A stretch of DNA of 64,000 bases from Gammaproteobacteria bacterium (lineage in GTDB: Bacteria; Pseudomonadota; Gammaproteobacteria; UBA4575), in NCBI GenBank assembly GCA_965214675.1, contig OZ243969.1, forward strand, positions 1,666,482 to 1,730,481, written 5' to 3'. Within the stretch, counting starts at the first letter, position 1; every line of letters begins with the position of its first letter. Under the pieces are notes generated by a model, which searched no databases, was not told the origin of the DNA, and saw only the letters and a program-made list of their open reading frames with translations. Of this stretch, positions 1 to 18,671 are shown one piece after another. Made by a program: the position numbers and the translations under genes.

Positions 1-1368
1 ACTATGCGGCGTTTCATGCTCCTGAACCTTGATGAAAAGCACCTCATTCCGGTACCCGTCAATTCGCAGTCGATCGCCGGACTGGACGGTCTGGGGCTCA
101 CTCAGGCGCCGGTCATTGAGCCTGATCTTGTAGTTTTTCAGGTGGCGCAACTCGATGCGCATGCCTTTTTTCTGGATCCTGCAGACCCCGCTTTCGTTGC
201 ATACCGGGTCCAGTGCCAGACGTATCTCGTGGTGGTCCTTGGTGAGCTGCAGTTCCTGTTTTTCGCCAAGCGGCCAGGCATGACTGCCGATCAGCAGGTG
301 GGTAGGGCAGTTGGGCAGGCTTGCCAGCAGCCCGGAATTGGGTTCGAGGAGTTCGACACGGGTGGACTTGTCCCAGCTCAGGGTCGTGGTGTAATGCACA
401 GCCTCATCCCCGGCGCAGATTTGCTCGCGATAACGCAAGGCCTGGCGGGCGATGCGGGTCGGGTCTGTGCCCAGTGTGGCACAGCCTGGCAGAGTTTTTA
501 AGAACTCGTTCAGACCGAAGACCTGGTTGCAGGTGGGAGAGCATACGATCGCGACCTTGTGGTCGGGAAGGAGTTCACTCAGGCAAATCGCGATCTCCTC
601 GAAGACGGCCTGGTTGATCCCTAGCACCTCTTTTCTGTGCAGTTGAATGCGGTGGCTTTGCCCTTCCGTGTGCAGCTCACAACCGACGGACTCCAGCGAT
701 TGCAGTGTCGCCAGCCAGTGCGGAAGCCGTTCATAAAGGAGTTGCTCGTCTTCGCCTTTTTGCAGGGGATCAAAGCGGGTTTCCCTGACAAACGCCGCCG
801 CAACCCATTTGGCCTGTGCCTGGATCAGTGACTGAAGCCCGTAGGGAATGACTTTGCCCGGGCGGCTGGCGGACACCTGCTTGCGGTCCTGGGCCACCAG
901 GGACAGGATGGTCCGCTCCTGTAAAACTGCGAGCCAGACGAGCCTGGCCTCGGGAACCGGCCCGGGGATGGCAAGCACCGCCTTGTTGACGATCCCCAGC
1001 ACCGAGATGTCGAGCTTTTCACAGATACCGAGTGCCAGCCCCAGTTCCCGTTTGCGCAGTGTGCCGGATACGGCCAGCAGTGCATCGTGGTCCTGGCGGT
1101 CGAGCAGGCTCCAGGCGAACTGCAGGTGATGCAGTGCAAGCTCGGCATGACTGACGGCATGCCGGGTCGTGCTTTGCCCGCCAAGGTCTGCCCAGAACCC
1201 GGTGTTGATATCCTGTGGGCGCAGATGCATCTGCTTTTCGGTTGCGTTTCCGACCAGGATGTCGGTCGGCGTATCCACCAGGGCACAGGCCGGGCTGTTG
1301 GCCAGGATGCGTTTGCCGTCGCTGATCAGGATGCCGCTTTCGTACAGATCGATGACTACCGTGGACAC
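1..1368 (-). CDS. Divergent Hsp70/DnaK-like ATPase, partial; the C-terminus lies beyond the window start
   Basis: Open minus-strand frame with no stop from 1368 down to 1 (>=456 codons). GTG start at 1368-1366 sits behind a perfect AAGGAG Shine-Dalgarno at 1384-1379. The N-terminus, VVIDLYESGILISDGKRILANSPACALVDTPTDILVGNATEKQMHLRPQDINTGF, aligns to the DnaK N-terminus, GIDLGTTNSCVAV..RVLENAEGDRTTPS..LVGQPAKRQAVTNPQNT. It is absent from the supplied ORF track, apparently because its stop lies outside the window. The plus-strand ORF 4..501 is its antisense shadow. Confidence 0.45.
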   Translation of the reverse strand, partial: MSTVVIDLYESGILISDGKRILANSPACALVDTPTDILVGNATEKQMHLRPQDINTGFWADLGGQSTTRHAVSHAELALHHLQFAWSLLDRQDHDALLAVSGTLRKRELGLALGICEKLDISVLGIVNKAVLAIPGPVPEARLVWLAVLQERTILSLVAQDRKQVSASRPGKVIPYGLQSLIQAQAKWVAAAFVRETRFDPLQKGEDEQLLYERLPHWLATLQSLESVGCELHTEGQSHRIQLHRKEVLGINQAVFEEIAICLSELLPDHKVAIVCSPTCNQVFGLNEFLKTLPGCATLGTDPTRIARQALRYREQICAGDEAVHYTTTLSWDKSTRVELLEPNSGLLASLPNCPTHLLIGSHAWPLGEKQELQLTKDHHEIRLALDPVCNESGVCRIQKKGMRIELRHLKNYKIRLNDRRLSEPQTVQSGDRLRIDGYRNEVLFIKVQEHETPHS

Positions 1369-1384
1369 GAGGGAGAGTGCTCCT

Positions 1385-2185
1385 TTACTTGGGTTGCAGG
1401 TGGCGGATCAGGTTATGGTTGCAGTAGTTTTGTGTATCCAGGATCAGGCGCTCCTGCAGGAGCTGGAGCTGGTACACGATGAACATCAGCACGATACTGA
1501 TACACAAGGCGATCAGGGTGGAGTTGAAGGCTACACCCAGGCTTTCCGTGACTCCGGCAATGTCCCCTTCCACGGCCTTGTGCGCCTGACCCAATGCATC
1601 GCCGATACCGCGCACAGTTCCGAGAAACCCGATGGAGGGAATTGCCCAGGTGATGTAACGGATGATGGACAATTCGGAGTCGAGGCGCTCGGCTTCGGAT
1701 TCGCATACGATCTGGGTGGCGGTGGAGACATCCTGGATGCTGCACGTGGAGTTGAAGCGGTGCAAGGCGACCAACAGGGCACGCGGCAGCAGGCAGTCCT
1801 GCTGTTCTTGCGTCAGGGCCTGGATCTGCCGGGTGAGCTTATGCGTGTCCTGTGGCAGGAACTTGATGCCCTCCTTGGCGTGCAGCAGGTTCATTTCCAG
1901 CATGCCTCTTTCGCGCAGCAGGTGGGCGCTCTTGTAGCTCATGATCACCAGGGCCCACAGCATGAGAATGAAGCAGGCCTCCTGTTCGTAGTCGCGCACC
2001 AGCACATACACCGAGCGTTTCGGCACGTAGTCCTGGTCCAGGTTGATCTGGGCGGCCTGGTACTCGAGTTCAGCTTCGGCATTGGGCCGGATCACGGTGA
2101 CATAGGCCGTGTGCACGACGATCATGATCAGCAGCAGGCTGAAGACCTGATAGGTAAGCTCGGAGGAAAACGGTTTTATTGTCAC
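1385..2185 (-). CDS. MotA/TolQ/ExbB-family proton-channel protein
   Basis: 266 aa with multiple TM helices and the family signature IPSIGFLGTVRGIGDALGQA. Its start overlaps the stop of the upstream small gene in an ATGA arrangement. No ExbD/TolR/MotB-like partner is encoded in the window. Confidence 0.6.
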   Translation of the reverse strand: MTIKPFSSELTYQVFSLLLIMIVVHTAYVTVIRPNAEAELEYQAAQINLDQDYVPKRSVYVLVRDYEQEACFILMLWALVIMSYKSAHLLRERGMLEMNLLHAKEGIKFLPQDTHKLTRQIQALTQEQQDCLLPRALLVALHRFNSTCSIQDVSTATQIVCESEAERLDSELSIIRYITWAIPSIGFLGTVRGIGDALGQAHKAVEGDIAGVTESLGVAFNSTLIALCISIVLMFIVYQLQLLQERLILDTQNYCNHNLIRHLQPK

Positions 2186-2187
2186 GT

Positions 2188-2427
2188 TCAGATGTCCGTT
2201 GGAAAACTGACCGGCTTGTCGGCCGAGACTTCTTCGCTGGGCACGAACTCCTCCAGGGGCGGGAGCTGAAATCTGCGGTCTCGCGAAAACCTCACGTCGG
2301 TGGCGCTCTCCTCACCTTGTTCTGCTGCAACCGTGCCGACGTTTTCAGGAAGATCGTCGATGTGCTCGGATGCCCCTGCCAGTGCCGGACACAGCGCCAT
2401 CCACAGCACGGCCGTGTGAAGTCTCAT
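2188..2427 (-). CDS. Small secreted acidic protein (signal peptide)
   Basis: 79 aa. N-terminal MRLHTAVLWMALCPALAGA looks like a signal peptide, and the mature part is Glu/Asp-rich. It is tightly packed between the FHA/PEGA gene and the MotA-like gene. Confidence 0.4.
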   Translation of the reverse strand: MRLHTAVLWMALCPALAGASEHIDDLPENVGTVAAEQGEESATDVRFSRDRRFQLPPLEEFVPSEEVSADKPVSFPTDI

Positions 2428-2433
2428 CGTACA

Positions 2434-4821
2434 CTAGTCCAGGTAGCGTGCAATTCGAAAGCCAAGATCGACATGTCTTTTATTATCCTGATCCCGGTAA
2501 CTGAGTCGAGTGTTGCTGAGGTCGCTTCGCTTCCAGGAAGCGCCACGAACCACATGCTTGGTGCCCGTCGCAGGCCCTGTAGGATCCACATAGACGGCAT
2601 CGCTCAGGGCAGGATACAGGCCATGGTAGTCATGACTCCATTCGGCAACGTTGCCATCCATGTCAAACAGTCCCAGTGGGTTGGCCCTGAAGCTGCCCAC
2701 CGGTGCCGCCACTGCAAAGCCATCATCATACTCGTCCAGGGTGACCTCAAGAATGCCGGCCGCTGCGCGATCGGCATAGTTGCCCGTAATTTCAACCGGT
2801 GGATAGTTCTCGCCCCAGGCGTATTTCGCCAGCGTGCCATCGGCCTGCCAGCGGGCTGCCCATTCCCATTCACTTTCCGTGGGCAGGCGATACCCTGACG
2901 GGATCGGATTCTTGGCCATCCAGTTTCCGTTTCTTTCTTCGTACACGGCGTTCAACCCTTCCTGTTCACTCAGCCAGTTGCAATAGCGTACCGCATCGGC
3001 CCAGGTGATGTTGACTACCGGCAATTCAGGTGCTGACAGGTCATACCCCCTGTAGCTGCCGGAGTGATGAGAGGCCATGAAGGCTGCAAAACGGCCGTTG
3101 GTCACTTCGGTGGTCGCCAGATAGAACGGGCGTTGCAGTGAGACCGTGTGCAGGGTCTCGTTGGTGCGCCGCCCCTGCTCGCGCCTCGGAGCCCCCATGG
3201 AAAACTCGCCACCCTGCAGGCGTACCAGTGTCTCACCCAGATGATTGCGGATGCGCGCGGGCCCGGTACGGGGTCCATGGTCTGCCGATGGCTTCAACGA
3301 AACCTCGATCACTTGAGGGGCCTGCGGTTTCGGAGTCATGGTCTGTGAGTGGCTTTCGTAACCGGATTTTCGTACCTCAAGGCGATGCGGTGCACTCGGC
3401 AGGCTGAGCCGGAGTCTGCCGTGACCTGCCGACTGGCCCTGGACCAGTACCTCGGCGTCTTCAGGCACCGGGTGCACGATCACGGTCCCGAGGATCGCCT
3501 CGAGGCGGGCATTCACCGTCTGTTGCTCGCCGGGCCGGATACGAAGGCTTTGCCGGCTCGGGCGGTACCCGGGCTTGGTCAGGGTCAGGCGGTGTTGGGC
3601 ATTGGGTGCCAGGGCGATGGTCAGCGGAGTGGTGCCTTTTTCAACGCCTTCGATGAACACATGGGCACCTGAAGGCCTACTGGCGATCAGCGCATGGCTG
3701 GTTCCTGTCTGCAAGTGCACGGGTGCCAGCGCGAGTGGCTGGTCCGCCAGCACCCGGAAATCCGAAGTATGGGTGAGGTAATCTGGATGGCGCAGGTCCA
3801 GCCGGTACTCTCCCGCCATCAACTCCAGGCGCACGGGCGTTTTGCCTCTGCGGACACCGTTCAGCCAGACCTCGGCCAGTTCCGGTCGCGAATCGATGGA
3901 CACCTCGGACCATCCTGGCTGCAACTGTATCCGGAGATCCTGTTGAACCAGTTCGCCCTGCATGACCAATTGCGTCGTATACGGAAGGTAGCGCTCGGCG
4001 AGCGCCTGCAGCGTATAGGTCCCCGCCGGCAACTCGATGCGTTCGACCGGGGTGACTCCGAAGGGTTTGTCATCGATCAGCAGGTGCACGCCATGTTCGG
4101 GGACGCTGGTAATGTTCAGGTAGCCGGAATGTTTGAGCAGGGTGAAGGCGAGGGTCTGGGATGCGTGTGTACCGACCCGGATCTCATGGTCCAGGGGGTG
4201 GTACCCGGCCCGGGTTGCCTGCAGGCGGTATTCGCCCGGACGTACCAGATAGCGCCCGCGTATCTTGAGTGGCCACGGGGTGCCTTGCAGGCGGACCGAA
4301 TCCGCGGCTGGATCAATCTCGATTTTCAGGCTCTTGGCCGTAAATACATGGACCACGAGCAGCACCAGGGTGATCAACACGGCCGCACCTGCAAGGGAGA
4401 GAGCGCCGCGCAACCGCCACCCTGATTTTCTGGCAGCCATTTTGGGAGGCACCAGCGGCGAAATCACCTCGCCATGAGGCACCACAGGACGCGTATCGCT
4501 GTCCTGGCCGCAGGGCCCGTCCACTACGGAAATCGAGAAGGTATTGCCGACATGTGCGATCTGAAAGTGGGTCGCCTCGATTTGCAGTATGTCCCCGGGG
4601 TGCAATGCCGTTGGAACTTCCACGCGGTGGTGGTTCAGCCGCACCTCAATGTCCGCATCCTGAGGTTCGATATAGACCTGGTTGGCATGGATACTCAGAA
4701 GCGCTGCCGTTGCGCCTGCATGGACCTTTGATGCAAGCTTCAGTGGAAAATCGGCCGGAGTGTGCTGCCGTTGTCCTTGCGCATCCGTGACGAGGATCTG
4801 CTGGATGACTTTATTTGACAT
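2434..4821 (-). CDS. Multidomain envelope protein: FHA-like N-terminus, one TM helix, about 5 PEGA repeats, and a C-terminal FGE-sulfatase (SUMF1/PvdO-like) domain that lacks the catalytic Cys pair
   Basis: 795 aa. The N-terminus has an FHA-like motif (SKVHAGATAALLSIHANQVYI...HPGDILQIEATHFQI). A hydrophobic helix (LSLAGAAVLITLVLLVVHVF) is followed by repeated PEGA-like units, for example PSGAHVFIEGVEKGTTPLTIALAPNAQHRLTLTKPGYRP. The C-terminus carries FGE-sulfatase motifs (GGEFSMG, TEVTNGRFAAF, RLPTESEWEWAAR, GNVAEWSHD, VVRGASW) with only one Cys in the whole domain. Confidence 0.6.
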   Translation of the reverse strand: MSNKVIQQILVTDAQGQRQHTPADFPLKLASKVHAGATAALLSIHANQVYIEPQDADIEVRLNHHRVEVPTALHPGDILQIEATHFQIAHVGNTFSISVVDGPCGQDSDTRPVVPHGEVISPLVPPKMAARKSGWRLRGALSLAGAAVLITLVLLVVHVFTAKSLKIEIDPAADSVRLQGTPWPLKIRGRYLVRPGEYRLQATRAGYHPLDHEIRVGTHASQTLAFTLLKHSGYLNITSVPEHGVHLLIDDKPFGVTPVERIELPAGTYTLQALAERYLPYTTQLVMQGELVQQDLRIQLQPGWSEVSIDSRPELAEVWLNGVRRGKTPVRLELMAGEYRLDLRHPDYLTHTSDFRVLADQPLALAPVHLQTGTSHALIASRPSGAHVFIEGVEKGTTPLTIALAPNAQHRLTLTKPGYRPSRQSLRIRPGEQQTVNARLEAILGTVIVHPVPEDAEVLVQGQSAGHGRLRLSLPSAPHRLEVRKSGYESHSQTMTPKPQAPQVIEVSLKPSADHGPRTGPARIRNHLGETLVRLQGGEFSMGAPRREQGRRTNETLHTVSLQRPFYLATTEVTNGRFAAFMASHHSGSYRGYDLSAPELPVVNITWADAVRYCNWLSEQEGLNAVYEERNGNWMAKNPIPSGYRLPTESEWEWAARWQADGTLAKYAWGENYPPVEITGNYADRAAAGILEVTLDEYDDGFAVAAPVGSFRANPLGLFDMDGNVAEWSHDYHGLYPALSDAVYVDPTGPATGTKHVVRGASWKRSDLSNTRLSYRDQDNKRHVDLGFRIARYLD

Positions 4822-4835
4822 CGGCGCTTGTTGGA

Positions 4836-6395
4836 TCAGATCGTCTCTTTACACGAAATATGCACGCGTCCGTTTTTCATGTCCGGGGTCACGTTGAGAG
4901 TTTTTCGAACGTCTCGATAACCTGGTCGAGAGCCGAGGATCGTGTAGCGTCCTGGCCGAAGTTGCACGTCGTAGTGCTCGAATCGTCCGAGCTGGCCCAC
5001 CCGGAAGATGCTCACGTCGGTCTGGTTGTCCGAATACAGGGCAATTGAGACGGGCTGGCGGGCCTGTTCGATCACATCTTGCAGGGCGTTGGCTGCTTGC
5101 AGGATTCGCCGACCCGGACTTTCGTCAAGTGATACGATTTCATCCAGCAATGTCTGCACCTCAGCCGATACTTCAGCCGAGTACAGGCGCTCGCTGTGCT
5201 CAAGATAACCCCCCAGCATTGCCAGCAAGGCTGCACGGGATCTTGATCGCTCGGCGGCCTCCCTGGCATGGGCGGTCTGCGGGGCGAGCGCCAGAAGCTG
5301 CTGCCAGCTTTGTGCGGCATGTTCCCAATCCTCGCGTTCCTCAAAATGAAGAGCCTCGACTTCCAGTTTCGCGATTTTTTCCTCGAGCTCAATCTGGTCG
5401 ATTCTGAGCAGCCCCTGCGCCGGCCGGTCCGAATCAGGAACCAGAGCCTGCGCCTTGTGAAAGGCGGTGCGGGCATCATCAAACTGGCGGTCCTTTAGCG
5501 AGTCGTACGCGCGAGTCATCCACCGGGAAAACTCCTCCTGGTTCAATTGCTCAGTTATCCGGTTTAGAGCCGCCACCGCCTCGCCCGACAGCGGGTCCAG
5601 GGCGACGGCCTCCCGGTAGACCTGTTCAGCACCCTGAAGATGGTTGGCCGCTTCGAGGTTGCCGCCCCTGTCCAGCAAAGCGAAAAGTTCACTGAGCGTC
5701 GCCGCTCGCGAAAGGCCATCGAGAGCCTGGCGGTTCTGGGAATCCACGGCGAGTGCCAGGTTGAAATGATGTGCAGCCACCTCGCCCTGGTTTCTCGACA
5801 GGGCCTGCAGGCCCTGCTCAAGGGCTTCATCCAGCACGGCGGCGGCCTGTTTTTGAAGTGCTTCAAGGAGGTCAATCGCCTGTTCATAGTGATCGGCTGC
5901 CTCGGCAAACGCCTGCTCGCGAAAATGAGCATCGCCGTCGTGTCCCCTCGCCATTGCCTGGTCGTAGCCATCACGGGCCCACAACTCAACCCCCTGTTGT
6001 TGCAGGGCCTCCTGTTTTTCAAGCAGGTCCAGGAGCAGCTTTTCCGCATGCAGTTTCAAGGCCGTAATCTCCGGATCTGAAACCCCAGCCTGATTTTTGG
6101 CAAGCGCCTCTGGCATGCCGCTTGGCTCGGACAGGGGCTCCGGGGGCTCGAGCAGGTGTACGGGGGGCTCCTCGCTCAGCGGGCCATCCGTTCTTTCGCG
6201 ATCGACCCATTCAGGCAACGCCAAGAACACGAGTGCCGCGACGGCCACCAGTACGAAGAACAGGACAGTCGGCAGGGCTGCACTGCGCGCATCCTTCGAC
6301 CGTGTCCCGGCCGCAGACGGCGTTCGCACGGTGTCAGGGTCAATCTTTTTAACAGGGGTGGAATCGTCTTTTCGCATGGCAGGTAAAAATCGCAC
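4836..6395 (-). CDS. Transmembrane TPR-repeat protein with a Pro/Glu-rich linker and a C-terminal PEGA domain
   Basis: 519 aa. A TM helix (LPTVLFFVLVAVAALVFLAL) is followed by a TonB/TolA-like Pro/Glu linker (EEPPVHLLEPPEPLSEPSGMPE). Then come long TPR-like helical repeats and a C-terminal PEGA-like segment (LRPGRYTILGSRPGYRDVRKTLNV). Confidence 0.5.
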   Translation of the reverse strand: MRFLPAMRKDDSTPVKKIDPDTVRTPSAAGTRSKDARSAALPTVLFFVLVAVAALVFLALPEWVDRERTDGPLSEEPPVHLLEPPEPLSEPSGMPEALAKNQAGVSDPEITALKLHAEKLLLDLLEKQEALQQQGVELWARDGYDQAMARGHDGDAHFREQAFAEAADHYEQAIDLLEALQKQAAAVLDEALEQGLQALSRNQGEVAAHHFNLALAVDSQNRQALDGLSRAATLSELFALLDRGGNLEAANHLQGAEQVYREAVALDPLSGEAVAALNRITEQLNQEEFSRWMTRAYDSLKDRQFDDARTAFHKAQALVPDSDRPAQGLLRIDQIELEEKIAKLEVEALHFEEREDWEHAAQSWQQLLALAPQTAHAREAAERSRSRAALLAMLGGYLEHSERLYSAEVSAEVQTLLDEIVSLDESPGRRILQAANALQDVIEQARQPVSIALYSDNQTDVSIFRVGQLGRFEHYDVQLRPGRYTILGSRPGYRDVRKTLNVTPDMKNGRVHISCKETI

Positions 6396-6430
6396 GCCTC
6401 CCTACAACATTGTCGCGTACTGCGTGCAGT

Positions 6431-7603
6431 TTAAATACTGTCCTGGAGGATCTTGTCCGCAGGCAGGCCCGTCTCTTGCAAATAGATTTCGCGCAACAGT
6501 TCGCGCCACTGGCGGTACTGTTCTTCAAGGGTGCCCGTGATCTCAACCGTGCGGCCCTGAATGTCCAAGACCAGGGGTTTCACCTCGGCCTTGAGGGAAT
6601 CTCCGAGTTCGCGGATGGCATCATCGTGAATCTGTGCTTCCCTGGCAATGTCGATGCCATCCTTGTACAACATGGCGCCGGTCGTCACAACGCCCGGGTA
6701 GTCTCTCAGCAGGCCCACAATCATGATCGCGGTGGCGGCAAGCTTGGTCCGGTTCGCGCGGCGTTCAATGGCCCGTTTTTGCTGGAGTTCAAGAAGGTAA
6801 TACCGGCGCCAGTTCGTATAGGGCCAGTGCATCACACTGTGAAAATTTGCGTAGTGCTCATTGATCGTATCGACGAACAGGTAGTCGCGTTCGCGGATCT
6901 TGCGTACCCGTTGCAGCATGGGATCATTCTTGGCCGGCAAGCGAGCCAGTTGCACCTGTCCGTTTGGCAGCCACACAAGATAGCCGGAAAACGAGTCGGG
7001 CGAGATGCTGGCGGCATAGCGCAACTCGGAGGTGTTTCGTATGCGGAGCAGTTGCCGGGCCGCCAGTTTCTTGCGGTGCCGGTAAATGTCATTGGCGATG
7101 CGGTTGTAGACGTGTTGGTAGACATCATCCCCTGGCTGGATGTCGACGTAGTCGTGTTCTGTCAGCTTGGCCTTGTACTTCCTGTCGAACCACAGGGTGC
7201 CGGTACTGTCCGAGACATGAGTGTGCAAAACCAGCGTCTCACCGTTTGAGATGATGATGGTGGCGCGTACGATGACATCCGCAATATGGGAGGCGGCCGG
7301 CAGCACCCGGATGGCGCCCCAACCGTAGGCGTGCTGCAAGGTCTCTTTCAGGTGATAGGCCATGTAACGCGCTTCGGCCGCACGGATATCCTCGTGGATA
7401 TTCTCCTCTTCCTGTTCTGGGGTAATCTCACCTTCATCGAACAGGAGCACCCCGACGTCCAGCAGAAGACTGTCCTGCAATTGCACCGTCTGCGATTCGA
7501 TTTCTTCCCCGCCTGAAACCCGTACCGTGTTCAGCGAACAGCTGCTAACCAACATGGCGATGGTCAGCCACAGGCACACCATCGAGTTTCCGGGCAGGGT
7601 CAT
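6431..7603 (-). CDS. Lipoprotein of unknown function
   Basis: 390 aa with a signal peptide and a lipobox (LVSSC). It has no recognisable catalytic motif and overlaps the upstream gene by 4 nt. Confidence 0.45.
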   Translation of the reverse strand: MTLPGNSMVCLWLTIAMLVSSCSLNTVRVSGGEEIESQTVQLQDSLLLDVGVLLFDEGEITPEQEEENIHEDIRAAEARYMAYHLKETLQHAYGWGAIRVLPAASHIADVIVRATIIISNGETLVLHTHVSDSTGTLWFDRKYKAKLTEHDYVDIQPGDDVYQHVYNRIANDIYRHRKKLAARQLLRIRNTSELRYAASISPDSFSGYLVWLPNGQVQLARLPAKNDPMLQRVRKIRERDYLFVDTINEHYANFHSVMHWPYTNWRRYYLLELQQKRAIERRANRTKLAATAIMIVGLLRDYPGVVTTGAMLYKDGIDIAREAQIHDDAIRELGDSLKAEVKPLVLDIQGRTVEITGTLEEQYRQWRELLREIYLQETGLPADKILQDSI

Positions 7604-8277
7604 TCGACTTCAGAGGAGGTCGAGGGCGTTACGCTCGCCTGTTGCTTCTTGTATTTGCGGTACTCGTCCCACAACTTCTCCCTGAGCACAGGATCGCGCT
7701 CGTTTTGTGCGGCTTCTCGAAGCTGGCGGGCGACAACATCGTCATCATCACCGCTGGGGATGTCGGCCGGTGGGGGTACCCGGTGCGCACCTCGTGTTCC
7801 ATGCTCGTCACTGCCTTCATCCGGATCGTCACCGGGTCCGCCGGACTCCGGGTTGCCCGCCTTGGCTACGGACCGGTCGGGCAGGCCTGCATCTGCCGGG
7901 TGTTCAGCCCCGTGCATATCTTCTGACCCGGATTCAGGCGCTTGTATATCTCCTGCAGCGGACGGCTGGTGGGCTTGTCTTTCGGCTTGCGCTTTTTCAA
8001 ATTCCTCGTGAATGGCTTCATCGTAGCGGCCCAGCGCCTCTTCGAGCTGCTGATCCAGCACAGCCACTTTTTCATCTTCGGTAGTGGCCGCGGCTTGCTT
8101 GTCTTTGGATGGCCGTTCATCCGGGGACCGTGCATTGTCTTCGGTTTGATTTTCAGTGGAAGGTGGCGAGTCAGGTGTCTGTGTGCGTGACTGGCGCTCC
8201 GGCTCCAGTGTGCTGCAGGCACCAAGCCAGACACCGAGCAACAAGATCAACAGGCACCGGAGGTCATGTGTTGTCAT
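7600..8277 (-). CDS. Acidic low-complexity lipoprotein
   Basis: The track ORF 7600..8433 starts at a far-upstream alternative codon. An internal ATG at 8277 gives MTTHDLRCLLILLLGVWLGACS, which is a signal peptide plus lipobox. The rest is Asp/Glu/Pro/Ser-rich. It is the first gene of the operon, after the 8278-8480 intergenic region. Confidence 0.45.
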   Translation of the reverse strand: MTTHDLRCLLILLLGVWLGACSTLEPERQSRTQTPDSPPSTENQTEDNARSPDERPSKDKQAAATTEDEKVAVLDQQLEEALGRYDEAIHEEFEKAQAERQAHQPSAAGDIQAPESGSEDMHGAEHPADAGLPDRSVAKAGNPESGGPGDDPDEGSDEHGTRGAHRVPPPADIPSGDDDDVVARQLREAAQNERDPVLREKLWDEYRKYKKQQASVTPSTSSEVE

Positions 8278-8480
8278 TGTTCTGCAATTCTGCCCGGCAC
8301 GTATTTCTGGGTCCGGATGAGATCTATTGAATATCACTATACTTGAATTGAGATCAGGTAGGGTAGCCTGCACCCGCGCCCGACAGAGGGCAAAAACGAT
8401 TGATTGGAATCCCTTATAGGGTCCATAGGTCACCGTGGAATTTGATTGACAAGCTCATGCATGGCGCCTAGAAAGGTGAC

Positions 8481-9293
8481 ATGCTATCCGCATTTTCATT
8501 GAATACCGAAGTGCTGGTTCGCCTGTCGAGCTTTGCGGGCCTGTTTGCGCTGTTCGCGGTGTGGGAACTCGTTGTCCCACGCCGCACCTGGCAGCATTCG
8601 AAAAGTGTGCGCTGGCTCAACAACCTCGCCATCATGGTACTGAACGGACTGATTGTGCGTCTCGGGATACCCCTGGCTGCGGTGGGCACGGCCGTCGCTG
8701 CACAAAACCAGAATCTGGGCTTGCTGAATATCGTTGACATGCCTGCGGTGATGGCAATCGCTGTTGCGATCCTCGCACTGGACTTCGTTCTGTATCTCCA
8801 GCACCTGGTGTTTCATCACGTCGATTTTCTGTGGCGGCTGCATCGCATGCATCATGCGGACCTGGATGTGGATGTCACCACCGGTTTGCGTTTTCACCCC
8901 ATCGAGATCGTGCTGTCCATGGGGATCAAGATGGCGGCCGTGCTGGTGTTGGGAGCTCCGGTCCTGGCGGTGATCGCGTTTGAAGTGCTGTTGAATGCAA
9001 GCTCGTTATTCAATCACGCAAATATCTACATTCCCGAAAAAGCAGATCGCATCCTGCGGTATTTCATTGTGACACCCGACATGCACCGCGTGCATCACTC
9101 GGTCGTGCGACAGGAAACCAACAGCAACTTCGGATTCAATGTTCCCTGGTGGGACTACCTGTTTCGAACCTACCGTGCTGCACCGCAGGCGGGGCAGACC
9201 GGCATGAACGTCGGGATTGAATACTTCCGTACCCGGCGCGACCTGTGGCTGGATCATTTGCTGATCCAGCCGTTTAGAAAACGGACCGGCTAG
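8481..9293 (+). CDS. Fatty acid hydroxylase / sterol desaturase family membrane protein
   Basis: Histidine boxes HHVDFLWRLHRMHHAD and HRVHH in a multi-TM protein. Confidence 0.6.
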   Translation: MLSAFSLNTEVLVRLSSFAGLFALFAVWELVVPRRTWQHSKSVRWLNNLAIMVLNGLIVRLGIPLAAVGTAVAAQNQNLGLLNIVDMPAVMAIAVAILALDFVLYLQHLVFHHVDFLWRLHRMHHADLDVDVTTGLRFHPIEIVLSMGIKMAAVLVLGAPVLAVIAFEVLLNASSLFNHANIYIPEKADRILRYFIVTPDMHRVHHSVVRQETNSNFGFNVPWWDYLFRTYRAAPQAGQTGMNVGIEYFRTRRDLWLDHLLIQPFRKRTG

Positions 9294-9402
9294 TCTGTCA
9301 GGCGCCGGTGAATCTTTGTGGGACCACGGCTGGCGAGCGCCTGCACACCCTGCAGTGGATACACAGGACCCTTATCGCCGTGGGCCGGGGCAAGAACCTG
9401 GG

Positions 9403-9918
9403 TTACTTGTGCAGGATTCCGCATGCAATACGGGGTCCAGCCGCTCCTGCAGGATCCGATTTGTAATCATCTGCGCCCTCGTGAATCACGATGGCCGCGC
9501 CGTCTTCATCGAACAACGCCGTATCCAGTACAAGCTGGGTATTCAGGATCTCGATCTCCAGACTCCCCGATTCCGGTACGTGGATATTCGGCATGTCGCC
9601 GGCATGCATTCCATCCTCGCCCAGGATGCCATGGTTGCGACCCTCCGGGTTGTAATGGCCGCCCGCTGACTTGAATGGTGGTTCGCATTTTCCGATGGAA
9701 TGCACATGGAAGGCATGGGCACCCGCTGGCAGGTCGTGCAGCTTCACGTGCAGGAGCGTGCCATGCGAAGTCCTGTGAAGGGTGGCCATCCCCACAGCGT
9801 CTCCGTTTGCGTTTTGTAATTTGGCGTATGCCTGTTTTGCGGCGCCGGCAAACTGCGGCATCACGGCCAACGCAAGGATGACGAGCAGTGCGGATACTGT
9901 GCGGTATCGGATAGTCAT
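9403..9918 (-). CDS. sodC: Periplasmic Cu/Zn superoxide dismutase
   Basis: Signal peptide followed by the motifs HAFHVHSIGKCE, GGHYNP, HAGDMPN, DDYKSDPAGAAGPRIACGIL. Confidence 0.8.
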   Translation of the reverse strand: MTIRYRTVSALLVILALAVMPQFAGAAKQAYAKLQNANGDAVGMATLHRTSHGTLLHVKLHDLPAGAHAFHVHSIGKCEPPFKSAGGHYNPEGRNHGILGEDGMHAGDMPNIHVPESGSLEIEILNTQLVLDTALFDEDGAAIVIHEGADDYKSDPAGAAGPRIACGILHK

Positions 9919-10012
9919 ATCTTTCCCCTTACCAATCTACGAAGATCGGTGATAATGGAAAGGCGATTCTAACACCGGGATTGATGATTACGAAAACGGA
10001 GCCCGAAGGCAT

Positions 10013-10537
10013 CTATCGAAGGACCAGGCTCAATATCAACAGACCGCTCAGGATCGCGCTCGCGAGCTTCCAAAAAGTGCAGGGTGCCTCTCCAGCAGGG
10101 GTGCTGACCCGGCACGGCGGACCAGATTCTGCATCCAGAGTAGAAAGATCGGCGATGAACTCTGACAAGGTTTCATATCTGTCGGACGGGTTTTGCGCCG
10201 TCGCCTTGGCCAGTGTCAAGTCAATCTACTTCGGCAGGCCGCCACCCTTTGCGAGCGGGACATAGGCGCGGTTCACGTACGCGCGCGCATCACGTGCCAG
10301 CGGCGGGCGGTACGGCAGTTTACCGGCTAGCATTTCGCAGGCGACGATGCCCAGGGCATAGAGGTCTGCGCTGTGCGTTGCAGGCTGACCCTGCAGGCAT
10401 TCCGGGGCGACATATCCGACCGATCCAGCAGGACAGGACTCCCGGACCACGGAATCGAGTTCGTCAAGGCCCTGTACATAGGCGGTGCCGAAGTCGATGA
10501 TCAGTGAATCAATAAATTTGTTTTTAAAGACGTGGCT
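10013..10537 (-). pseudogene. Ser/Thr protein kinase remnant: subdomains VII-XI plus the C-terminal TM helix only, interrupted by an in-frame TAG
   Basis: Frame reads IIDFGTAY...SVGYVAPE...DLYALGIVACEMLAGKLPY, then a stop at 10228-10226, then ...NPSDRYETLSEFIADL and a TM helix. There is no N-terminal catalytic half. The frame begins immediately after the TGA of the upstream Fe-S gene at 10540-10538. Confidence 0.65.
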
Positions 10538-12256
10538 TCAGTGACCTGAAAGCGGCACGCCTACGGCCGGATTGGCGGCCAGGCCGATATCTCGAGCGTG
10601 CTGCTCGAAAGCCTTGTTCTTCCAGAAGAATGCACCCGGTATCGTCGTGGGGGTAACCACCACGTAAAACAGCGCGCGACCCGAGACTGCAACAAGCAGG
10701 CTGAGCGTGGCTGCGAGCATCCACGGCAGTGGATGGGTGATGCCGGCCAGGCCCAGCACGACCACGAGCAGCAGGGCACTGGCCAGAAGCGCGTTCCTGA
10801 GGTAGTAGACACGGCTAAAGGTTGTGGTCTGCACATAGTGCGAAACCGCGCCTTCGTGCGATGCGCCGGCCATGTCACCCCGGTGCCCGATCAGGCCCAG
10901 CGATTCCAATGCCAGGCCAGCGGCGATTGCAATCACCACGGGCAGGGATACTCCGGGAGTACTGGCAAGAGCCACCCAGCCGCCCAATGCCAACGACGTT
11001 CCGACAAAGGCGGTGGCAGTCTGCCAGTGGTTCCAGAACGGTCGAGCAGGAATCGTGTAGCAGCGCACCATGAAATAAAGTGTTGCAATGCCTGCAGCAA
11101 CTGCAAACAGGCCTGACAGGAGCGCTGTACTGTCGTAGCCTCCCAGGTGGGCGAGGAAAAACAGGCCGGTAGCTGCGCCGAACAAGGCACTCGCCAGCGC
11201 TTCGCGGCTCAGGTTCGAGTGGCGCAGGTTATTGAAACCACGGTAGAACCGCATTTTCTTGCCAAGATGCGCCGTCGAAGCCAGCATGCCGACGACTACG
11301 AGTGCGAGTGCAGCGAATGCGATCCAGCCCCCGGCCACCCCGGCAGCAAACGCGACTGCGAAGGCACCCACGCCGGCCTGCACTGCCAAGGTGAAGGCCA
11401 CCAGCGGGGTTTCCCGCGATGACAGGCGCGCGAGATTCCAGCGTTTCCGTACCCCCTGTTTGGGATCGATGACCGGGTGGAACGAGCGATCATCACCCTT
11501 GCGGTACTTGATGGGTTCCGAGTCCGGTCGTGTGACTTCAAGTGGTGCCTGTTTCACTTGCTGGAAACGGATATTCGGATTCGTGATCCCGGGGTCGGGA
11601 AACCCGGGGATGCATGTCTCGACTTGCTCGCGGCCCCTCGGCACGTTCTCGACCACGCCAAAATCCAGGGCGTTGCCCACGCAGGCGGACACGCAGGCCG
11701 GCTTCAAGCCGACCTCCAGTCGATCCACGCACATGTTGCACTTTTCGACCTGGCCTGCCACCGGATCAAGTTGCGGGGCATTGTACGGACAGACCCAGGT
11801 GCAGTAGCCACAGCCGAAGCAGATATCAGGATCCTGAATCACGGCACCATATTCAGGGTGCTTGGTATAGGCCCGCGTTGGACAACCCTTCAGGCAGACA
11901 GGGTCGTCGCAGTGGTTACAGGCCATCGAGAGGTTGATGCGTGTGTAGTCAGGATAGGTTCCCCCTTCCACGTAACCCACGGATCGAAAGCTCAAGTGTG
12001 CCGGCAGGTCATTTTTCTCGCTGCATGCAGCCTCGCACGCGTGACAGCCAATGCAGTTGTCCGCGGTGAAGTGGAATGCGTGCTGCTGGGTGCGGTTCGG
12101 GTTGTCACCGATGCCGGCATCGCCATTGATGTGGAGACTGACACCGCGCTCGCCATCTGCCAGCAGCTGGATCGGCTTGCCGTAGCGGTTCAACGCCTGC
12201 GCAGGGGTATCCGAAAGCCTGGCGTAGTCCGGTTCGTCGGTACGTAACGGAATCAC
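10538..12256 (-). CDS. Fused 4x[4Fe-4S] ferredoxin (DmsB/NrfC-like) and polytopic membrane anchor (DmsC/NrfD-like), no Tat signal
   Basis: Four Cys clusters (CIGCHACEAAC, CNHCDDPVCLKGCP, CFGCGYCTWVCP, CNMCVDRLEVGLKPACVSAC) are followed by about 8 hydrophobic helices. It is translationally coupled to the upstream molybdoenzyme gene (start/stop at 12256). Confidence 0.6.
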   Translation of the reverse strand: MIPLRTDEPDYARLSDTPAQALNRYGKPIQLLADGERGVSLHINGDAGIGDNPNRTQQHAFHFTADNCIGCHACEAACSEKNDLPAHLSFRSVGYVEGGTYPDYTRINLSMACNHCDDPVCLKGCPTRAYTKHPEYGAVIQDPDICFGCGYCTWVCPYNAPQLDPVAGQVEKCNMCVDRLEVGLKPACVSACVGNALDFGVVENVPRGREQVETCIPGFPDPGITNPNIRFQQVKQAPLEVTRPDSEPIKYRKGDDRSFHPVIDPKQGVRKRWNLARLSSRETPLVAFTLAVQAGVGAFAVAFAAGVAGGWIAFAALALVVVGMLASTAHLGKKMRFYRGFNNLRHSNLSREALASALFGAATGLFFLAHLGGYDSTALLSGLFAVAAGIATLYFMVRCYTIPARPFWNHWQTATAFVGTSLALGGWVALASTPGVSLPVVIAIAAGLALESLGLIGHRGDMAGASHEGAVSHYVQTTTFSRVYYLRNALLASALLLVVVLGLAGITHPLPWMLAATLSLLVAVSGRALFYVVVTPTTIPGAFFWKNKAFEQHARDIGLAANPAVGVPLSGH

Positions 12257-14439
12257 TAGAACGTCCTCAAGGCTGTGTTTTGCAGCGCGGCTTCATGCTG
12301 GTCGACAGACTCAATGCGCACCGCGCACTGCTTGAACGCCGGCTGTCTCGAATACGGATCGAGCAGGCCCAGGGTCAGCCGATTGACGCACTCGTGGAAG
12401 TGAAACGGGATGAATACCATGTCGTTCGGCACACGCTGGGTGCACTGGACCATCACCACGGCATCGCCGCGGCGGGACACCAGCCGGGCATAGCCCATGT
12501 GGTCCACGCCCAGCTCATCGGCTGCATCCGGGTTCATCTCCATGTACGGTGTCGGCGAAAACTTGTTGCAGTCACCGACCTTGCCGGTCTTGGTTCTGGT
12601 GTGAAAGTGTTCCACCACGCGTCCACTGTTCAGCCAGAACGGGAAGTCTGCATCCGGGCGCTCGTTATTTTCGAGGTACGGCAACGAAAGCAACTTCGCC
12701 TTGCCGTCAGGAAATGCAAAAACACCATCGGTATACAGGCGCGGTGCGCCTTTCACCTCACCTTCCCGCATCGGCCACTGCAGACCGCGTGCGCGCTCGA
12801 TCCTGTCGTAGCTCATGCCTGAAATGTCGAGGTTCCTGGTCTGCCCCTTGGAGAGCTGCTTCATTTCCTCGAACGCGGCCTGCGGTGTCTCGGGCCAGTT
12901 CATGTTCGCTGCACGATCCCAGCGTTTGGCGAGTGCCGTGAAAATCCAGTGGTCCGGTCTCGAGTCCGCGTAGGGCTCGCTGACCGGCCGCGTCAGGTTG
13001 ACGCGACGCTCGGTGTTGGTGAAGCAACCCTCCTTCTCGGCCCACACAGAAGCTGGCAGGAAGACATGGGCGTAGTCCGCGGTCTCGGTGTCCTCGTAGG
13101 CATCCTGTACGACACAGAAGTCGAGCTTTTGCATGGTTTTGCGGATACGCGGCGAATTCGGCATGGAGGTCAAGGGATTCGTGGCGATCACCCAGAGGGC
13201 CTTGATCTGGCCGGTTTCAATGGCGGGAAAAATGTCTGTTTGAAACAGGCCGCGCTGCTTCGGGAAGAACTCCGGATCAACGTTCCAGAACTTCCCGACT
13301 TCCTCGCGATGGGTCGGGTTCTCAAGTTGCCGATAGCCAGGCAAGCCCGAACACGACGACCACTCGCGGGTACCCATGGCATTGCATTGCCCGGTGATCG
13401 ACAGGCTCGTGCCACCGGGTTTGCCGATATTCCCGGTAACGAGATTGAGATTGTTAATCGCGCAGACACCATCGGTACCGTGGGTCGACTGGTTGATGCC
13501 CATCGTCCAGATTGCCATGGCCGCATCGGCATTACCGTACAGGCGAGCCACGTGTCGAATGGTGTCCTCATCAATGCCGCAGATCTTCGCGGCCGTGGAC
13601 GGGTCATAGCGTGCAACAGTGGCTGCGAAGTCCTCGAATCCGTGCGTGTGCGCGCGGATAAAGGACTCATCGTGCAGGCCATCTTCGAGAATGACGTGGC
13701 ACAGGCTGTTGAGTAACACAAGGTCGGTGCCCGGAGTGACGGGCAGGTGGATATCCGCGAACTGCGCGAACATGGTGACACGCGGATCGACAACGATGAT
13801 CGGAAACCGACGCTTCTCAAGCGCCTCTTTCAGGCGCCAGTAGATAATCGGGTGCTGTTCCGGGAGGTTGGAACCGAACGCGAGCAGGCAGTGCGTGTGA
13901 TCGAAGTCGGCATAGCATCCAGGGGGACCGTCTGCTCCGAACGAGCGCTTGTAACCTGACACGGCGGAGGCCATGCAAAGGGTCGTGTTCCCGTCATAGT
14001 TGTTCGTGCCGATCACACCCCTTACCAGCTTTCCAAGCGTATAGAACTCCTCGGTCATGATCTGACCGGTGGATACCACGGCCACGGCATCGCGCCCGTG
14101 CTCGGCTTGAATTCGCTTGAACTCGCCGGCGACACGATCAAGTGCAGTGTTCCAGTCCGTACGCTGCCAGTGTTCATAAATGCGGTTGCGTACTTTGGGT
14201 GAGCCGCCGCGACCGGGCGCTGCAAAAATCTGTGCCTGGGTCAGTCCCTTGATGCAGAGCTTGCCACGATTAACATCGGCACCGCCGAGGCCACGTGCAG
14301 TGACCGGCTTGCCCTCACTATCCACACCGACCTCGACGGAACAACCCACGGAGCAATATCCACAGGTCGTGTATTTCCAGTCGACAACGCCCTTGTCGGC
14401 GATGCGGATGGGGTTTTTGGTGCGGCGACCGAACAGCAT
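12256..14439 (-). CDS. nasA: Assimilatory nitrate reductase catalytic subunit (molybdopterin oxidoreductase, cytoplasmic)
   Basis: N-terminal Fe-S motif TTCGYCSVGCSVEV....KLCIKG with no Tat signal, and MoCo-oxidoreductase family similarity throughout. The track start (GTG at 14529) would overlap nirD by 79 nt. The internal ATG at 14439 overlaps by 13 nt and is preferred. Confidence 0.6.
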   Translation of the reverse strand: MLFGRRTKNPIRIADKGVVDWKYTTCGYCSVGCSVEVGVDSEGKPVTARGLGGADVNRGKLCIKGLTQAQIFAAPGRGGSPKVRNRIYEHWQRTDWNTALDRVAGEFKRIQAEHGRDAVAVVSTGQIMTEEFYTLGKLVRGVIGTNNYDGNTTLCMASAVSGYKRSFGADGPPGCYADFDHTHCLLAFGSNLPEQHPIIYWRLKEALEKRRFPIIVVDPRVTMFAQFADIHLPVTPGTDLVLLNSLCHVILEDGLHDESFIRAHTHGFEDFAATVARYDPSTAAKICGIDEDTIRHVARLYGNADAAMAIWTMGINQSTHGTDGVCAINNLNLVTGNIGKPGGTSLSITGQCNAMGTREWSSCSGLPGYRQLENPTHREEVGKFWNVDPEFFPKQRGLFQTDIFPAIETGQIKALWVIATNPLTSMPNSPRIRKTMQKLDFCVVQDAYEDTETADYAHVFLPASVWAEKEGCFTNTERRVNLTRPVSEPYADSRPDHWIFTALAKRWDRAANMNWPETPQAAFEEMKQLSKGQTRNLDISGMSYDRIERARGLQWPMREGEVKGAPRLYTDGVFAFPDGKAKLLSLPYLENNERPDADFPFWLNSGRVVEHFHTRTKTGKVGDCNKFSPTPYMEMNPDAADELGVDHMGYARLVSRRGDAVVMVQCTQRVPNDMVFIPFHFHECVNRLTLGLLDPYSRQPAFKQCAVRIESVDQHEAALQNTALRTF

Positions 14440-14450
14440 GACAGCATGTC

Positions 14451-14792
14451 TTAATGGCGGACCTGGATCCGACCCGCAATGACGCGAGTCGGGTACGTGC
14501 GGATTGAGACCGCATCGTCCTCGATACACTGGCCCGTTTTCAGGTTGAAGTGTTGTTTATAGACAGGTGAGGCCACCACAAGCTGCCCCTTAAGGTCCCC
14601 GACAATTCCGCGTGAAAGTACGGGCACGTTACTGAACGGATCGATAGCATCGATCACGAAGATGTCGTCAGAGCACGACACGCGAAACACCGCGACCTGG
14701 TCGTCACCTAGCAGCGCTCTTACACCCACATCGGGTATCAGCGCATCGAGTTCACAAACAGTGGTCCAAGGCATGGCTGGCATCCACTTCAT
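14451..14792 (-). CDS. nirD: Nitrite reductase [NAD(P)H] small subunit
   Basis: 113 aa, Rieske-like NirD family, overlapping the nirB stop by 4 nt. Confidence 0.7.
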   Translation of the reverse strand: MKWMPAMPWTTVCELDALIPDVGVRALLGDDQVAVFRVSCSDDIFVIDAIDPFSNVPVLSRGIVGDLKGQLVVASPVYKQHFNLKTGQCIEDDAVSIRTYPTRVIAGRIQVRH

Positions 14793-17433: not shown

Positions 17434-17829
17434 TCAATAATCCTCCATATAAAGTGACAACTGGATGTCCAGCCACTGGTCCAGCTTCTTGAGTGATTCC
17501 ATCTGTACGAACAACCGTTTCCCCGCGTCCATCAGCCGCGCGGGTATTTCGTTGTACTGGCGGGGGATGTAACCGAGCTTGTGCCCCCCTGTCGTCAGGA
17601 CTTCGATAGCGAACTTGTCATGCACATTTTTAGGCTCGCGGCGCAAACTGAAGCGCTGTCCGGAAGACAGGCTTTCAACCACATTTTCCGCCTCGTAGTA
17701 ATGGGTTCCCGCAACGTGCATCCGTGCAAGCATGATGTCCTGTGCAAAGGGTATACGAAGAGCTTTTCCGGTAACGCTTTTCTGGAGAAGCTGTTCAACG
17801 AGTTCGGTTTTCTGAAGCGCCTTGTTCAT
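17434..17829 (-). CDS. HIRAN-domain protein
   Basis: HIRAN-like core MHVAGTHYYEAENV...LSLRREPKNVHDKFAIEV...GHKLGYIPRQYNEIPARLMDAG. Its ATG at 17829 sits immediately 3' of the stop of the J-domain gene, which suggests translational coupling. The track ORF start at 17949 is an upstream alternative start inside the neighbouring gene. Confidence 0.5.
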   Translation of the reverse strand: MNKALQKTELVEQLLQKSVTGKALRIPFAQDIMLARMHVAGTHYYEAENVVESLSSGQRFSLRREPKNVHDKFAIEVLTTGGHKLGYIPRQYNEIPARLMDAGKRLFVQMESLKKLDQWLDIQLSLYMEDY

Positions 17830-17831
17830 AT

Positions 17832-18671
17832 TCAGTGGGTGGGGCCAGAAGGCGGAAGCAGCATTTCGTACCGACCCTGCAATTCCACCCGATGTTGCTT
17901 GCGACCGGCAATCTCCTGCTGTAGCTCTTCCTGCTTGGCCTGAATCCACTGGGAGTCTTCAAGTTTTTCCCGATAAGAGAACGGAGGCTTGGTGAGTATC
18001 TTGGCAAGCCGATTGCTCTGTTTTTTGACCTGGGAATTCAGTCGTTTGATTTCCGAGTTGAAATCGTCGGATGCCTTCAGCAGTGGCTTCCCGGAAAGAT
18101 CCAGCGTTTCGGCCAAGGCTTTAAGAAGATCAAGATCTCCCTCTCGATAGGCGTGCTGCAACGTGGACCAGATCTGCTTCCCGCGCTCCGATTTTTCCCC
18201 ACCCACGTCGGGGTGGTAATGCTGGCAAATCCGGCGGTACAGGCGCTTCAGTTCACGGTAATGCTCCGGCTTCATCCATTTCACGGTGTCCAACAGGCCG
18301 ATGGAGTGGCGCAGCTCGCGCTCCTTCTCCTTGAGCGCAACGTGAAATTTCTCAAACTCTATACGGATTTCCTCATTGAGGCGTTCAAGCCGTTCAGCGG
18401 TAACGGTTTTGCCGCGGTTAATGTCCGCTTGCAAGATCGAGATGCGCCGCCTCAGTTCCGCCAATTCGACGTCCAGAAGAAATAGCTCATGTTCCAGGTA
18501 TCCAATATCACGGTTGTACTTGGCCATGAGCAGGTCTCGTTCGTTGTAAAGCAGAGATTCATGTTCTTCTATGAGCGCACTGAGCTTCTTGCGCAGCGCA
18601 TCGATCTCCTCGAGTTTGGCAGACACGGAAGGGTGCAAGATTAGATCACTACGTTCTTCGCTGACACCCAC
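17832..18671 (-). CDS. Coiled-coil J-domain (DnaJ-like) protein
   Basis: Central J-domain with HPD motif (YRELKRLYRRICQHYHPDVGGEKSERGKQIWSTLQHAYREGDLDLL), flanked by heptad-rich coiled-coil sequence. Confidence 0.55.
   Translation of the reverse strand: MGVSEERSDLILHPSVSAKLEEIDALRKKLSALIEEHESLLYNERDLLMAKYNRDIGYLEHELFLLDVELAELRRRISILQADINRGKTVTAERLERLNEEIRIEFEKFHVALKEKERELRHSIGLLDTVKWMKPEHYRELKRLYRRICQHYHPDVGGEKSERGKQIWSTLQHAYREGDLDLLKALAETLDLSGKPLLKASDDFNSEIKRLNSQVKKQSNRLAKILTKPPFSYREKLEDSQWIQAKQEELQQEIAGRKQHRVELQGRYEMLLPPSGPTH

Follow-up and report, generated by a model that had tools for sequence, protein, structure and literature searches.

What is encoded at the left edge of this stretch of DNA, and what could its product do? 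The window, by which we mean the whole 64,000-nt stretch analysed here (GenBank assembly GCA_965214675.1, contig OZ243969.1, from a gammaproteobacterium of the UBA4575 lineage), opens on a minus-strand open reading frame (ORF), here called gene G, that is missing from the list of ORFs supplied with the sequence. The initial annotation took it for the N-terminus of a non-canonical Hsp70, cut off by the window edge and encoded by the last gene of an envelope operon. Here, we show that G is a real, complete gene of 456 codons. Its predicted product joins an Hsp70-type nucleotide-binding domain (NBD), in which every ATP motif is degenerate, to an FHA domain, and we cautiously favour a role for it as an adaptor on the cytoplasmic side of a putative proton-driven envelope machine. 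The gene and its ribosome-binding site are placed as follows.

1..1368, minus strand: gene G, complete coding sequence of 456 codons, with the stop codon just beyond window position 1 (translation, homologues, TAA in locus L005, dN/dS).
1380..1385, minus strand: Shine-Dalgarno sequence AAGGAG of G (read from the sequence).

Read from 1368 down to 1, the minus strand contains 456 sense codons and zero stops, as the initial annotation had found by hand translation. At about 59.5% GC some 3.3% of random codons are stops, and an open frame of 456 codons would arise by chance with a calculated probability of about 2.5e-7. The first canonical start in the frame is the GTG at 1368-1366, and orthologues share this start position (V/MSTVVIDLYDSG), using GTG in loci L005, L007, L009 and L011 and ATG in L006 and L012. 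The perfect AAGGAG that had been noted 5' of the GTG is indeed present at 1385-1380, with a spacer of 11 nt instead of the 8 nt reported, and it overlaps the final base of the TAA stop of the preceding gene, F. The 48 word-indexed homologues are about 445-460 aa long and match at E values down to 2.6e-298 with a query coverage of 96-100%. G aligns with its relatives over the full length with zero frameshifts, and a ratio of nonsynonymous to synonymous substitution rates (dN/dS) of 0.12-0.28 against orthologues indicates that the gene is under purifying selection. In L005, which is 96% identical to G, a TAA follows immediately after codon 456. Hence, the G protein is complete and the window boundary coincides with its last sense codon, so that the leftward extension of the contig once thought necessary would add no residues; the gene is missing from the ORF list solely because its frame is still open where the window ends.

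An open frame arising by chance, or what is left of a pseudogene at a contig edge, could likewise be unlisted, start with GTG and touch the window edge, but this reading, to which we give practically no weight, is refuted by the homologues, the full-length alignment, the dN/dS values and the synteny described below, as well as by the size of the family: a profile search recovers 2854 clusters (50% identity) at E<=0.001, of which 1171 reach E<=1e-30. The plus-strand ORF 4..501 fits the antisense shadow of G that it had been taken for, given that it has no independent support and that G+C at third codon positions is 0.739 for the minus-strand frame versus 0.627 for this ORF. By sequence, the G family is widespread and unnamed, and it is encoded inside a conserved TolQ-like/vWA operon; source databases label its members solely as 'hypothetical protein' or 'FHA domain-containing protein'. 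The closest relatives (L005-L029) come from metagenome-assembled genomes (MAGs) of uncultured Gammaproteobacteria, some labelled Thiotrichales. Several of these have complete chromosomes of 1.8-2.1 Mb, which suggests that the window stems from a small-genome marine or host-associated lineage.

According to the structural models, the protein consists of an Hsp70-type NBD (residues ~1-340), a short linker and a degenerate FHA domain (~355-448).

349..1368, minus strand: residues 1-340, predicted Hsp70-type nucleotide-binding-domain fold with all ATP motifs degenerate (AlphaFold2, Foldseek, hhalign, motif comparison).
25..306, minus strand: residues 355-448, predicted FHA-fold beta-sandwich without the canonical Ser-Arg-x-His phosphothreonine loop (domain-only AlphaFold2 model, Foldseek, Pfam FHA in relatives).

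Standard annotation is silent on G. The protein has no match at E<=1 in Pfam and NCBIfam and none in PADLOC, a phmmer search of the PDB returns nothing relevant (a chance malate-dehydrogenase match only), and no Pfam model covers the N-terminal two-thirds of the family. The initial annotation had proposed a search with HSP70 and actin-like models and a structure prediction as checks. The search came back empty, with 0 of 47 aligned family members matching the Pfam HSP70, MreB, FtsA or actin models, even at E<=10; the prediction gave an Hsp70-type fold. An AlphaFold2 model of G built from the family alignment has a mean predicted local distance difference test (pLDDT) score of 90.3 and a predicted template modelling score of 0.86, and when it is compared with the PDB by Foldseek, the 50 best matches are without exception Hsp70/Hsp110 proteins (E 1.2e-16 to 2.8e-14), including Ssb, BiP, Hsc70, DnaK and Ssz1. 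NBD-only targets align over ~352 columns with a root-mean-square deviation of ~4.3 A and a template modelling score of up to 0.69 (normalised to the target), and the model shares the two-lobed fold of the Hsp70/DnaK NBD (PF00012; 5tky Ssb, 6asy BiP, 6b1n Hsc70, 4b9q DnaK). Modelling thus assigns the N-terminal domain to a very divergent Hsp70-type NBD fold.

Profile comparison points the same way. The first ~70 residues had been aligned motif-for-motif with DnaK, and hhalign returns the same alignment, pairing IDL with IDL, RILAN with RVLEN, LVGNATEKQ with LVGQPAKRQ and RPQD with NPQN. The family profile matches E. coli DnaK over 257-261 collinear columns (E 0.004-0.005) and a DnaK+HscA pair over 257 columns (E 2.3e-4), whereas FtsA is matched over a 63-column fragment (E 0.027) and MreB over a 39-column fragment. 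Among the ~260 residues collinear with DnaK are a VPxxF-type strand and a helix (I-V-N-K-A-V-L-A in G) that resembles the I-I-N-E-P-T-A-A-A helix of DnaK. The lobe-IIB helix 'R-N-D-P-L..RL' of Hsp70 appears in G as an invariant T-R-F-D-P-L; the retention of this Hsp70-specific trait favours Hsp70 over other actin-fold families as the ancestor. Searched against the PDB, the family profile finds Ssb1 at E 0.024 among mostly FHA matches. The Hsp70 signal at the sequence level is weak but specific.

The features that would make such a fold a chaperone are missing. We mapped the functional residues of DnaK via the hhalign alignment onto the 191-sequence alignment of the G family; the equivalences below are profile-based and do not come from superposed coordinates.

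Phosphate-1 loop: D-L-G-T-T-N in DnaK; E-L-N-D-A-G in the family, with the Asp in 182/191; D7-L-Y-E-S-G in the window protein.
K70 of DnaK (segment unaligned in hhalign): an invariant Trp in the family by manual alignment; Trp59 in the window protein.
E171 of DnaK: Ala, Ser or Thr in the family; Lys (K128) in the window protein.
Phosphate-2 loop: D-L-G-G-G-T in DnaK; D-[LVI]-[QH]-L-H-R in the family; A147-V-L-Q-E-R in the window protein, with the Asp lost too.
Adenosine motif: G-G-x-T-R (G341-G342) in DnaK; S-H-R in the family; S-P-T in the window protein (C-S-P-T-C for G-G-Q-T-R).

The interdomain linker, substrate-binding domain (SBD) and lid of Hsp70 are likewise absent from G, which has an FHA fold at 355-448 and ends at residue 456. 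On this residue mapping G would be a pseudo-ATPase and not a functional Hsp70 or working chaperone. The term non-canonical Hsp70 hence holds for the NBD fold, as supported by AlphaFold2, Foldseek and hhalign, and fails for the function, given that no HSP70 model matches and the ATP motifs and SBD are gone.

For the C-terminal domain, a separate AlphaFold2 model of residues 347-456 (pLDDT 84.9) contains 10 strands, the FHA fold being eleven-stranded. Its top 50 Foldseek matches are all FHA domains (best E 8.5e-4, probability 1.00), among them KIF13B, KIF1A, FhaA, Ki-67, EmbR and OdhI/GarA. Pfam FHA gives the window protein no score; the model is passed by 27 of the 47 aligned relatives (best E 1.6e-14), in a region contiguous in the alignment with the window protein. 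The SRxH motif of the phosphothreonine (pThr) loop is gone from the window protein through a four-residue deletion in the alignment, and the only remnants of the pThr site are an Asn (N418) and the GDRL strand.

The genomic setting of G is that of an envelope system. A gene order of [Z]-A-B-(kinase)C-D-E-F-G-H-I-[J] is found in 108 loci (BLAST against reference proteins), with F missing in six, and also in three loci with called genes (L001-L003). Genes A to G lie in the window (minus strand, 8433..1), which also includes the opening 17 nt of H; G is therefore not the terminal gene of the operon, as had been assumed, given that the two conserved genes H and I follow it. The genes F, G and H show start/stop overlaps or tight spacing: the stop of F lies 16 nt from the GTG of G, and the end of G and the ATG of H overlap by 20 nt in relatives (L005 11349-11371). 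This arrangement suggests that the three genes may be translationally coupled. The other operon genes in the window are:

1..17, minus strand: start of gene H, first 17 nt ATGAAACGCCGCATAGT; H has a TolR-like Asp helix, a coiled coil and a vWA domain (annotated in L001, L002, L003 and L006).
1385..2185, minus strand: gene F, TolQ/ExbB/MotA-like proton-channel subunit, 266 aa (Pfam MotA_ExbB 1.2e-13; BLASTP against E. coli TolQ).
2188..2427, minus strand: gene E, small secreted acidic protein of 79 aa with a signal peptide and a conserved C-terminal FPxDI (translation, synteny).
2434..4821, minus strand: gene D, 795 aa, with a weak FHA-like N-terminus, one transmembrane (TM) helix, four PEGA domains and an FGE-sulfatase domain (Pfam).
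4836..6395, minus strand: gene C, 519 aa, with a short cytoplasmic tail, a TM helix, periplasmic TPR repeats and a C-terminal beta-sandwich (Pfam TPR; kinase fusion in L003).
6431..7603, minus strand: gene B, conserved lipoprotein of 390 aa with no known domain (Pfam, synteny).
7600..8433, minus strand: gene A, acidic low-complexity lipoprotein; the coordinates are those of the longest ORF, and the true start is probably internal at MTTHDLRC... (sequence, synteny).

G is the sole component without a signal peptide or clear TM helix; a hydrophobicity scan finds one borderline segment only, at residues 109-127, which lies inside the NBD fold. In gene D, the Pfam matches are FGE-sulfatase (9.5e-48), PEGA (1.2e-44) and FHA (0.012), with the TM helix at residues 136-167. 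Gene A has a conserved C-terminus, DDDxVARQxREAA...LWEEYRKYKK. Frames of 700-800 aa from stop to stop that looked like F-G fusion proteins were rejected as alternative-frame read-through over F in high-GC DNA, where F is called separately. PADLOC has no match for G, C, D, E, B or A, a weak ZorA-type MotA match for F (E 1.2e-4) and coiled-coil noise for H and I. We accordingly rejected a defence-system reading, whether Zorya-like or of the kind described for conflict systems (PMC7159879), which has no PADLOC support and a different partner set.

Genes F, H and I form a core that, judged by analogy and gene content, looks like a proton-driven 5:2 motor. In a BLASTP alignment with E. coli TolQ, F keeps the GTV and the T178-equivalent pore threonines. 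H and I are paralogues. Both combine an N-terminal TM helix, the Asp of which aligns with TolR D23, with a coiled coil and a vWA domain in which the DxSxS metal ion-dependent adhesion site (MIDAS) motif is intact. Their place is after G in L001-L003 as well as in the majority of the 108 loci, and the operon has no tolR/exbD gene. A recent study (PMC12204202; Mol Biol Evol 2025, msaf138, section 8, Fig. 4c-d) reported tolQ-like genes tightly linked to heterologous 'trans-pore-helix vWA' (TPH-vWA) pairs without tolR/exbD and proposed the TPH-vWA class as a new proton-driven 5:2 motor, with an AlphaFold3 model from another species. The G operon resembles this class in its tolQ-like gene, its TolQ threonines, its heterologous vWA pair with a TolR D23-equivalent Asp in the single TM helix and its lack of tolR/exbD, a likeness that rests on gene features, the example in that paper being from Idiomarina. 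It differs from the published description by having a gene between tolQ and the vWA pair, as well as FHA, kinase, PEGA/FGE-sulfatase and lipoprotein partners, none of which is mentioned in the text and supplements of PMC12204202. In literature on the Hsp70/FHA/vWA/TolQ/PEGA/FGE-sulfatase combination we found no description of the G protein. The acidic exported proteins A and E are candidate ligands of the MIDAS sites of H and I, which is speculation at this stage.

A link between G and gene C emerges from comparing clades. The window clade comprises uncultured marine Gammaproteobacteria (some labelled Thiotrichales), in which C has a 34-residue cytoplasmic tail only. In the other sampled clade, whose H proteins are mostly assigned by NCBI to Steroidobacteraceae MAGs, C carries an N-terminal Ser/Thr kinase domain and the FHA domain of G has the canonical G-I-S-R-x-H-C and G-T-F-V-N-G loops. 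The window C (4836-6395) is orthologous to a Ser/Thr-kinase-TM-TPR protein (L003 4273-6525), with a clearly homologous C-terminal beta-sandwich, and none of the 23 window-clade loci in which the N-terminus of C is covered has the kinase domain. The SRxHC motif occurs in 28 of 29 kinase-bearing loci and in 0 of 23 kinase-less loci. This pattern fits a partnership of kinase and FHA domain that the window clade gave up as a whole. An apparent 'kinase' upstream of the operon in L005 was dismissed as a chance match of 38 residues and 39 bits.

What, then, might G do? We lean towards the view that it acts as a nucleotide-independent cytoplasmic adaptor of a putative proton-driven envelope machine, rather than as a chaperone. 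The pseudo-Hsp70 body would form a protein-docking platform on the cytoplasmic face of the machine, and the FHA domain would act as a tether. In the ancestral form, represented by the Steroidobacteraceae-type loci, the FHA domain would read phosphothreonine made by the kinase domain of C; in the window lineage, where kinase and pThr loop were lost together, binding would be phospho-independent or constitutive.

Both halves of such an adaptor have precedents. PilM of type IV pili, the cytoplasmic domain of GspL in the type II secretion system and FtsA are actin-fold docking scaffolds at the inner face of the envelope, and GspL has no nucleotide site. G differs from them in that its structural neighbours are Hsp70 NBDs and its hhalign match to FtsA is confined to the fragment given above. 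Among FHA adaptors, Fha1 of the type VI secretion system works with the kinase PpkA, and mycobacterial FhaA is another adaptor of the envelope; as with PpkA/Fha1, relatives of G have a membrane Ser/Thr kinase encoded in the same operon. In the Agl-Glt gliding motor of Myxococcus, GltG is predicted to dock by its FHA domain onto the cytoplasmic side of AglR, a TolQ-like pentamer (PMC11761067), and we propose a similar placement for the FHA domain of G at the cytoplasmic side of its TolQ-like complex. GltG combines its FHA domain with a TM helix and a periplasmic arm, whereas G, a soluble protein, has its own fused to the pseudo-Hsp70 body, and, in contrast to GltG, Fha1 and FhaA as a set, the window clade is without both pThr loop and kinase. 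For the Hsp70 half, NBD-only Hsp70 proteins in GAP1-N2 GTPase conflict systems (PMC7159879; eLife 2020) and a kinase+HSP70 protein of Pirellula (PMC1262709; BMC Genomics 2005) indicate that an Hsp70 NBD can exist without a peptide-binding domain and that bacterial Hsp70 and Ser/Thr kinases can be associated. Unlike G, however, these proteins can still be recognised as Hsp70s, have GrpE or DnaJ as partners and lie in an unrelated gene context (GTPases, tubulin).

Several observations weigh against the adaptor reading. The residue equivalences on which the loss of the ATP site is argued come from a weak profile alignment (hhalign probability 7-45%), and most family members keep acidic residues, E7 and D147, at the positions of DnaK D8 and D194; on this basis the cleft could conceivably bind a metal or an unusual ligand in the wider family. 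The correlation between kinase and FHA loop is essentially one clade split and thus one evolutionary event. Moreover, F is absent in 6 of the 84 loci covering E and G (L046, L051, L055, L056, L063 and L067), while E, G, H and I are kept and E is directly followed by G (for example, L055 8690-10603), and a tblastn search across these six loci found no TolQ-like F anywhere in the locus. The partner of G may therefore be H/I, D or C instead of the TolQ-like channel.

The two acidic positions, which would be the Mg-coordinating ones, are also an argument that G is an active but atypical ATPase or chaperone that binds nucleotide in a non-canonical manner and uses hydrolysis for assembly or remodelling of the envelope complex, as are the well-preserved overall NBD fold and the purifying selection. 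We nevertheless consider this unlikely, because all three glycine-rich phosphate and adenosine loops and the counterpart of the catalytic Glu are lost throughout the family, hhalign aligns no residue with the catalytic Lys (the invariant Trp59 being placed there by manual alignment), the conserved Asp (182/191) of the phosphate-1 loop sits at the would-be phosphate site and D147 is also lost in the window protein. SBD and linker are lacking as well, and none of the three Pfam-annotated loci (L001-L003) has a DnaJ or GrpE gene within 10 kb of G. Compared with Hsp70/DnaK overall, G has no HSP70 score and degenerate ATP motifs, an FHA domain in place of linker, SBD and lid, no GrpE/DnaJ nearby and an operon for an envelope machine around it. 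These differences also weigh against the idea, implied by the initial annotation, that G is a diverged DnaK-type chaperone which still works and has as its partner the J-domain protein pointed out at 17832-18671. The ORF of that protein indeed contains an HPD motif, at residue 153, and gives a weak Pfam DnaJ match (E 0.0013, below the gathering score), but it lies 16 kb off, behind nitrite-reductase, Mo-oxidoreductase, superoxide dismutase and fatty-acid-hydroxylase genes on both strands, and adjoins a HIRAN ORF instead. At L001, L002 and L003 there is no DnaJ gene near G to suggest such a pairing, and G has neither the linker/SBD interface for J action nor an ATPase to stimulate. The motif thus stands, the link to G is unsupported, and we regard the pairing as highly improbable.

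A filament is a further way in which an actin-superfamily fold could serve an envelope machine, with G as a polymer-forming cytoskeletal protein (MreB, FtsA or ParM-like) that positions or clusters the complex. The shared fold superfamily and the weak FtsA fragment (E 0.027, 63 columns) are compatible with this, and actin-fold proteins are known from the cytoplasmic side of other envelope machines, FtsA and PilM being examples. We hold it to be somewhat less probable still than an atypical ATPase: the top 50 structural neighbours are Hsp70/Hsp110 proteins and not MreB, ParM, FtsA or actin, the full-length sequence signal is to DnaK only, known actin-like filaments need nucleotide whereas G is without a nucleotide site, and neither terminus of G shows an evident amphipathic helix for membrane targeting. 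Returning to the adaptor reading, we tentatively entertain a stronger version of it, which we rate as clearly less probable than the adaptor role itself. Here, an Hsp70 NBD that had lost its ATP site altogether would have been exapted for an uncharacterised class of proton-driven 5:2 envelope motors with a vWA heterodimer as 'stator plug'. It would be a permanent subunit of the motor on the cytoplasmic side, serving as a clutch, a rotor partner or a signalling output, and would have been switched ancestrally by the operon-encoded kinase via the FHA domain before becoming hard-wired in the window lineage.

The fold assignment of G is in itself a routine outcome for structure-based annotation. 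New is the combination of a pseudo-Hsp70 NBD fused to an FHA domain, inside a barely described envelope-motor system, an architecture likely to be unexpected to specialists on Hsp70 and on envelope motors alike and one that offers a concrete handle on this machine. The N-terminus would be a clean case in which the ATPase core of a chaperone has become a pseudo-enzyme scaffold, and G appears to be the only fully cytoplasmic component of a TolQ-like/vWA envelope system of 9-11 genes, the motor core of which was first noticed in 2025. The paired loss of kinase domain and pThr loop provides a natural experiment on how phospho-regulation is discarded. There is also a lesson for annotation, given that a GTG-started gene touching the edge was missed in the ORF list even though it is complete.

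The remaining observations concern the surroundings of the operon. Its flank (8481-17329) consists of genes for redox and stress functions and encodes a fatty-acid hydroxylase (plus strand), a Cu/Zn superoxide dismutase, a 4Fe-4S/DmsC-like fusion, a molybdopterin oxidoreductase and a NirB-like nitrite reductase. Beyond it, the minus-strand ORF at 17434-18671 has a coiled-coil N-terminus and a short J-like segment (YHPDVGG), and overlaps or abuts the HIRAN ORF (Pfam 1.7e-19); this J-like/HIRAN pairing is unusual and is unrelated to G. The G+C content of the window falls from ~0.60 at its left end to ~0.53 at its right.

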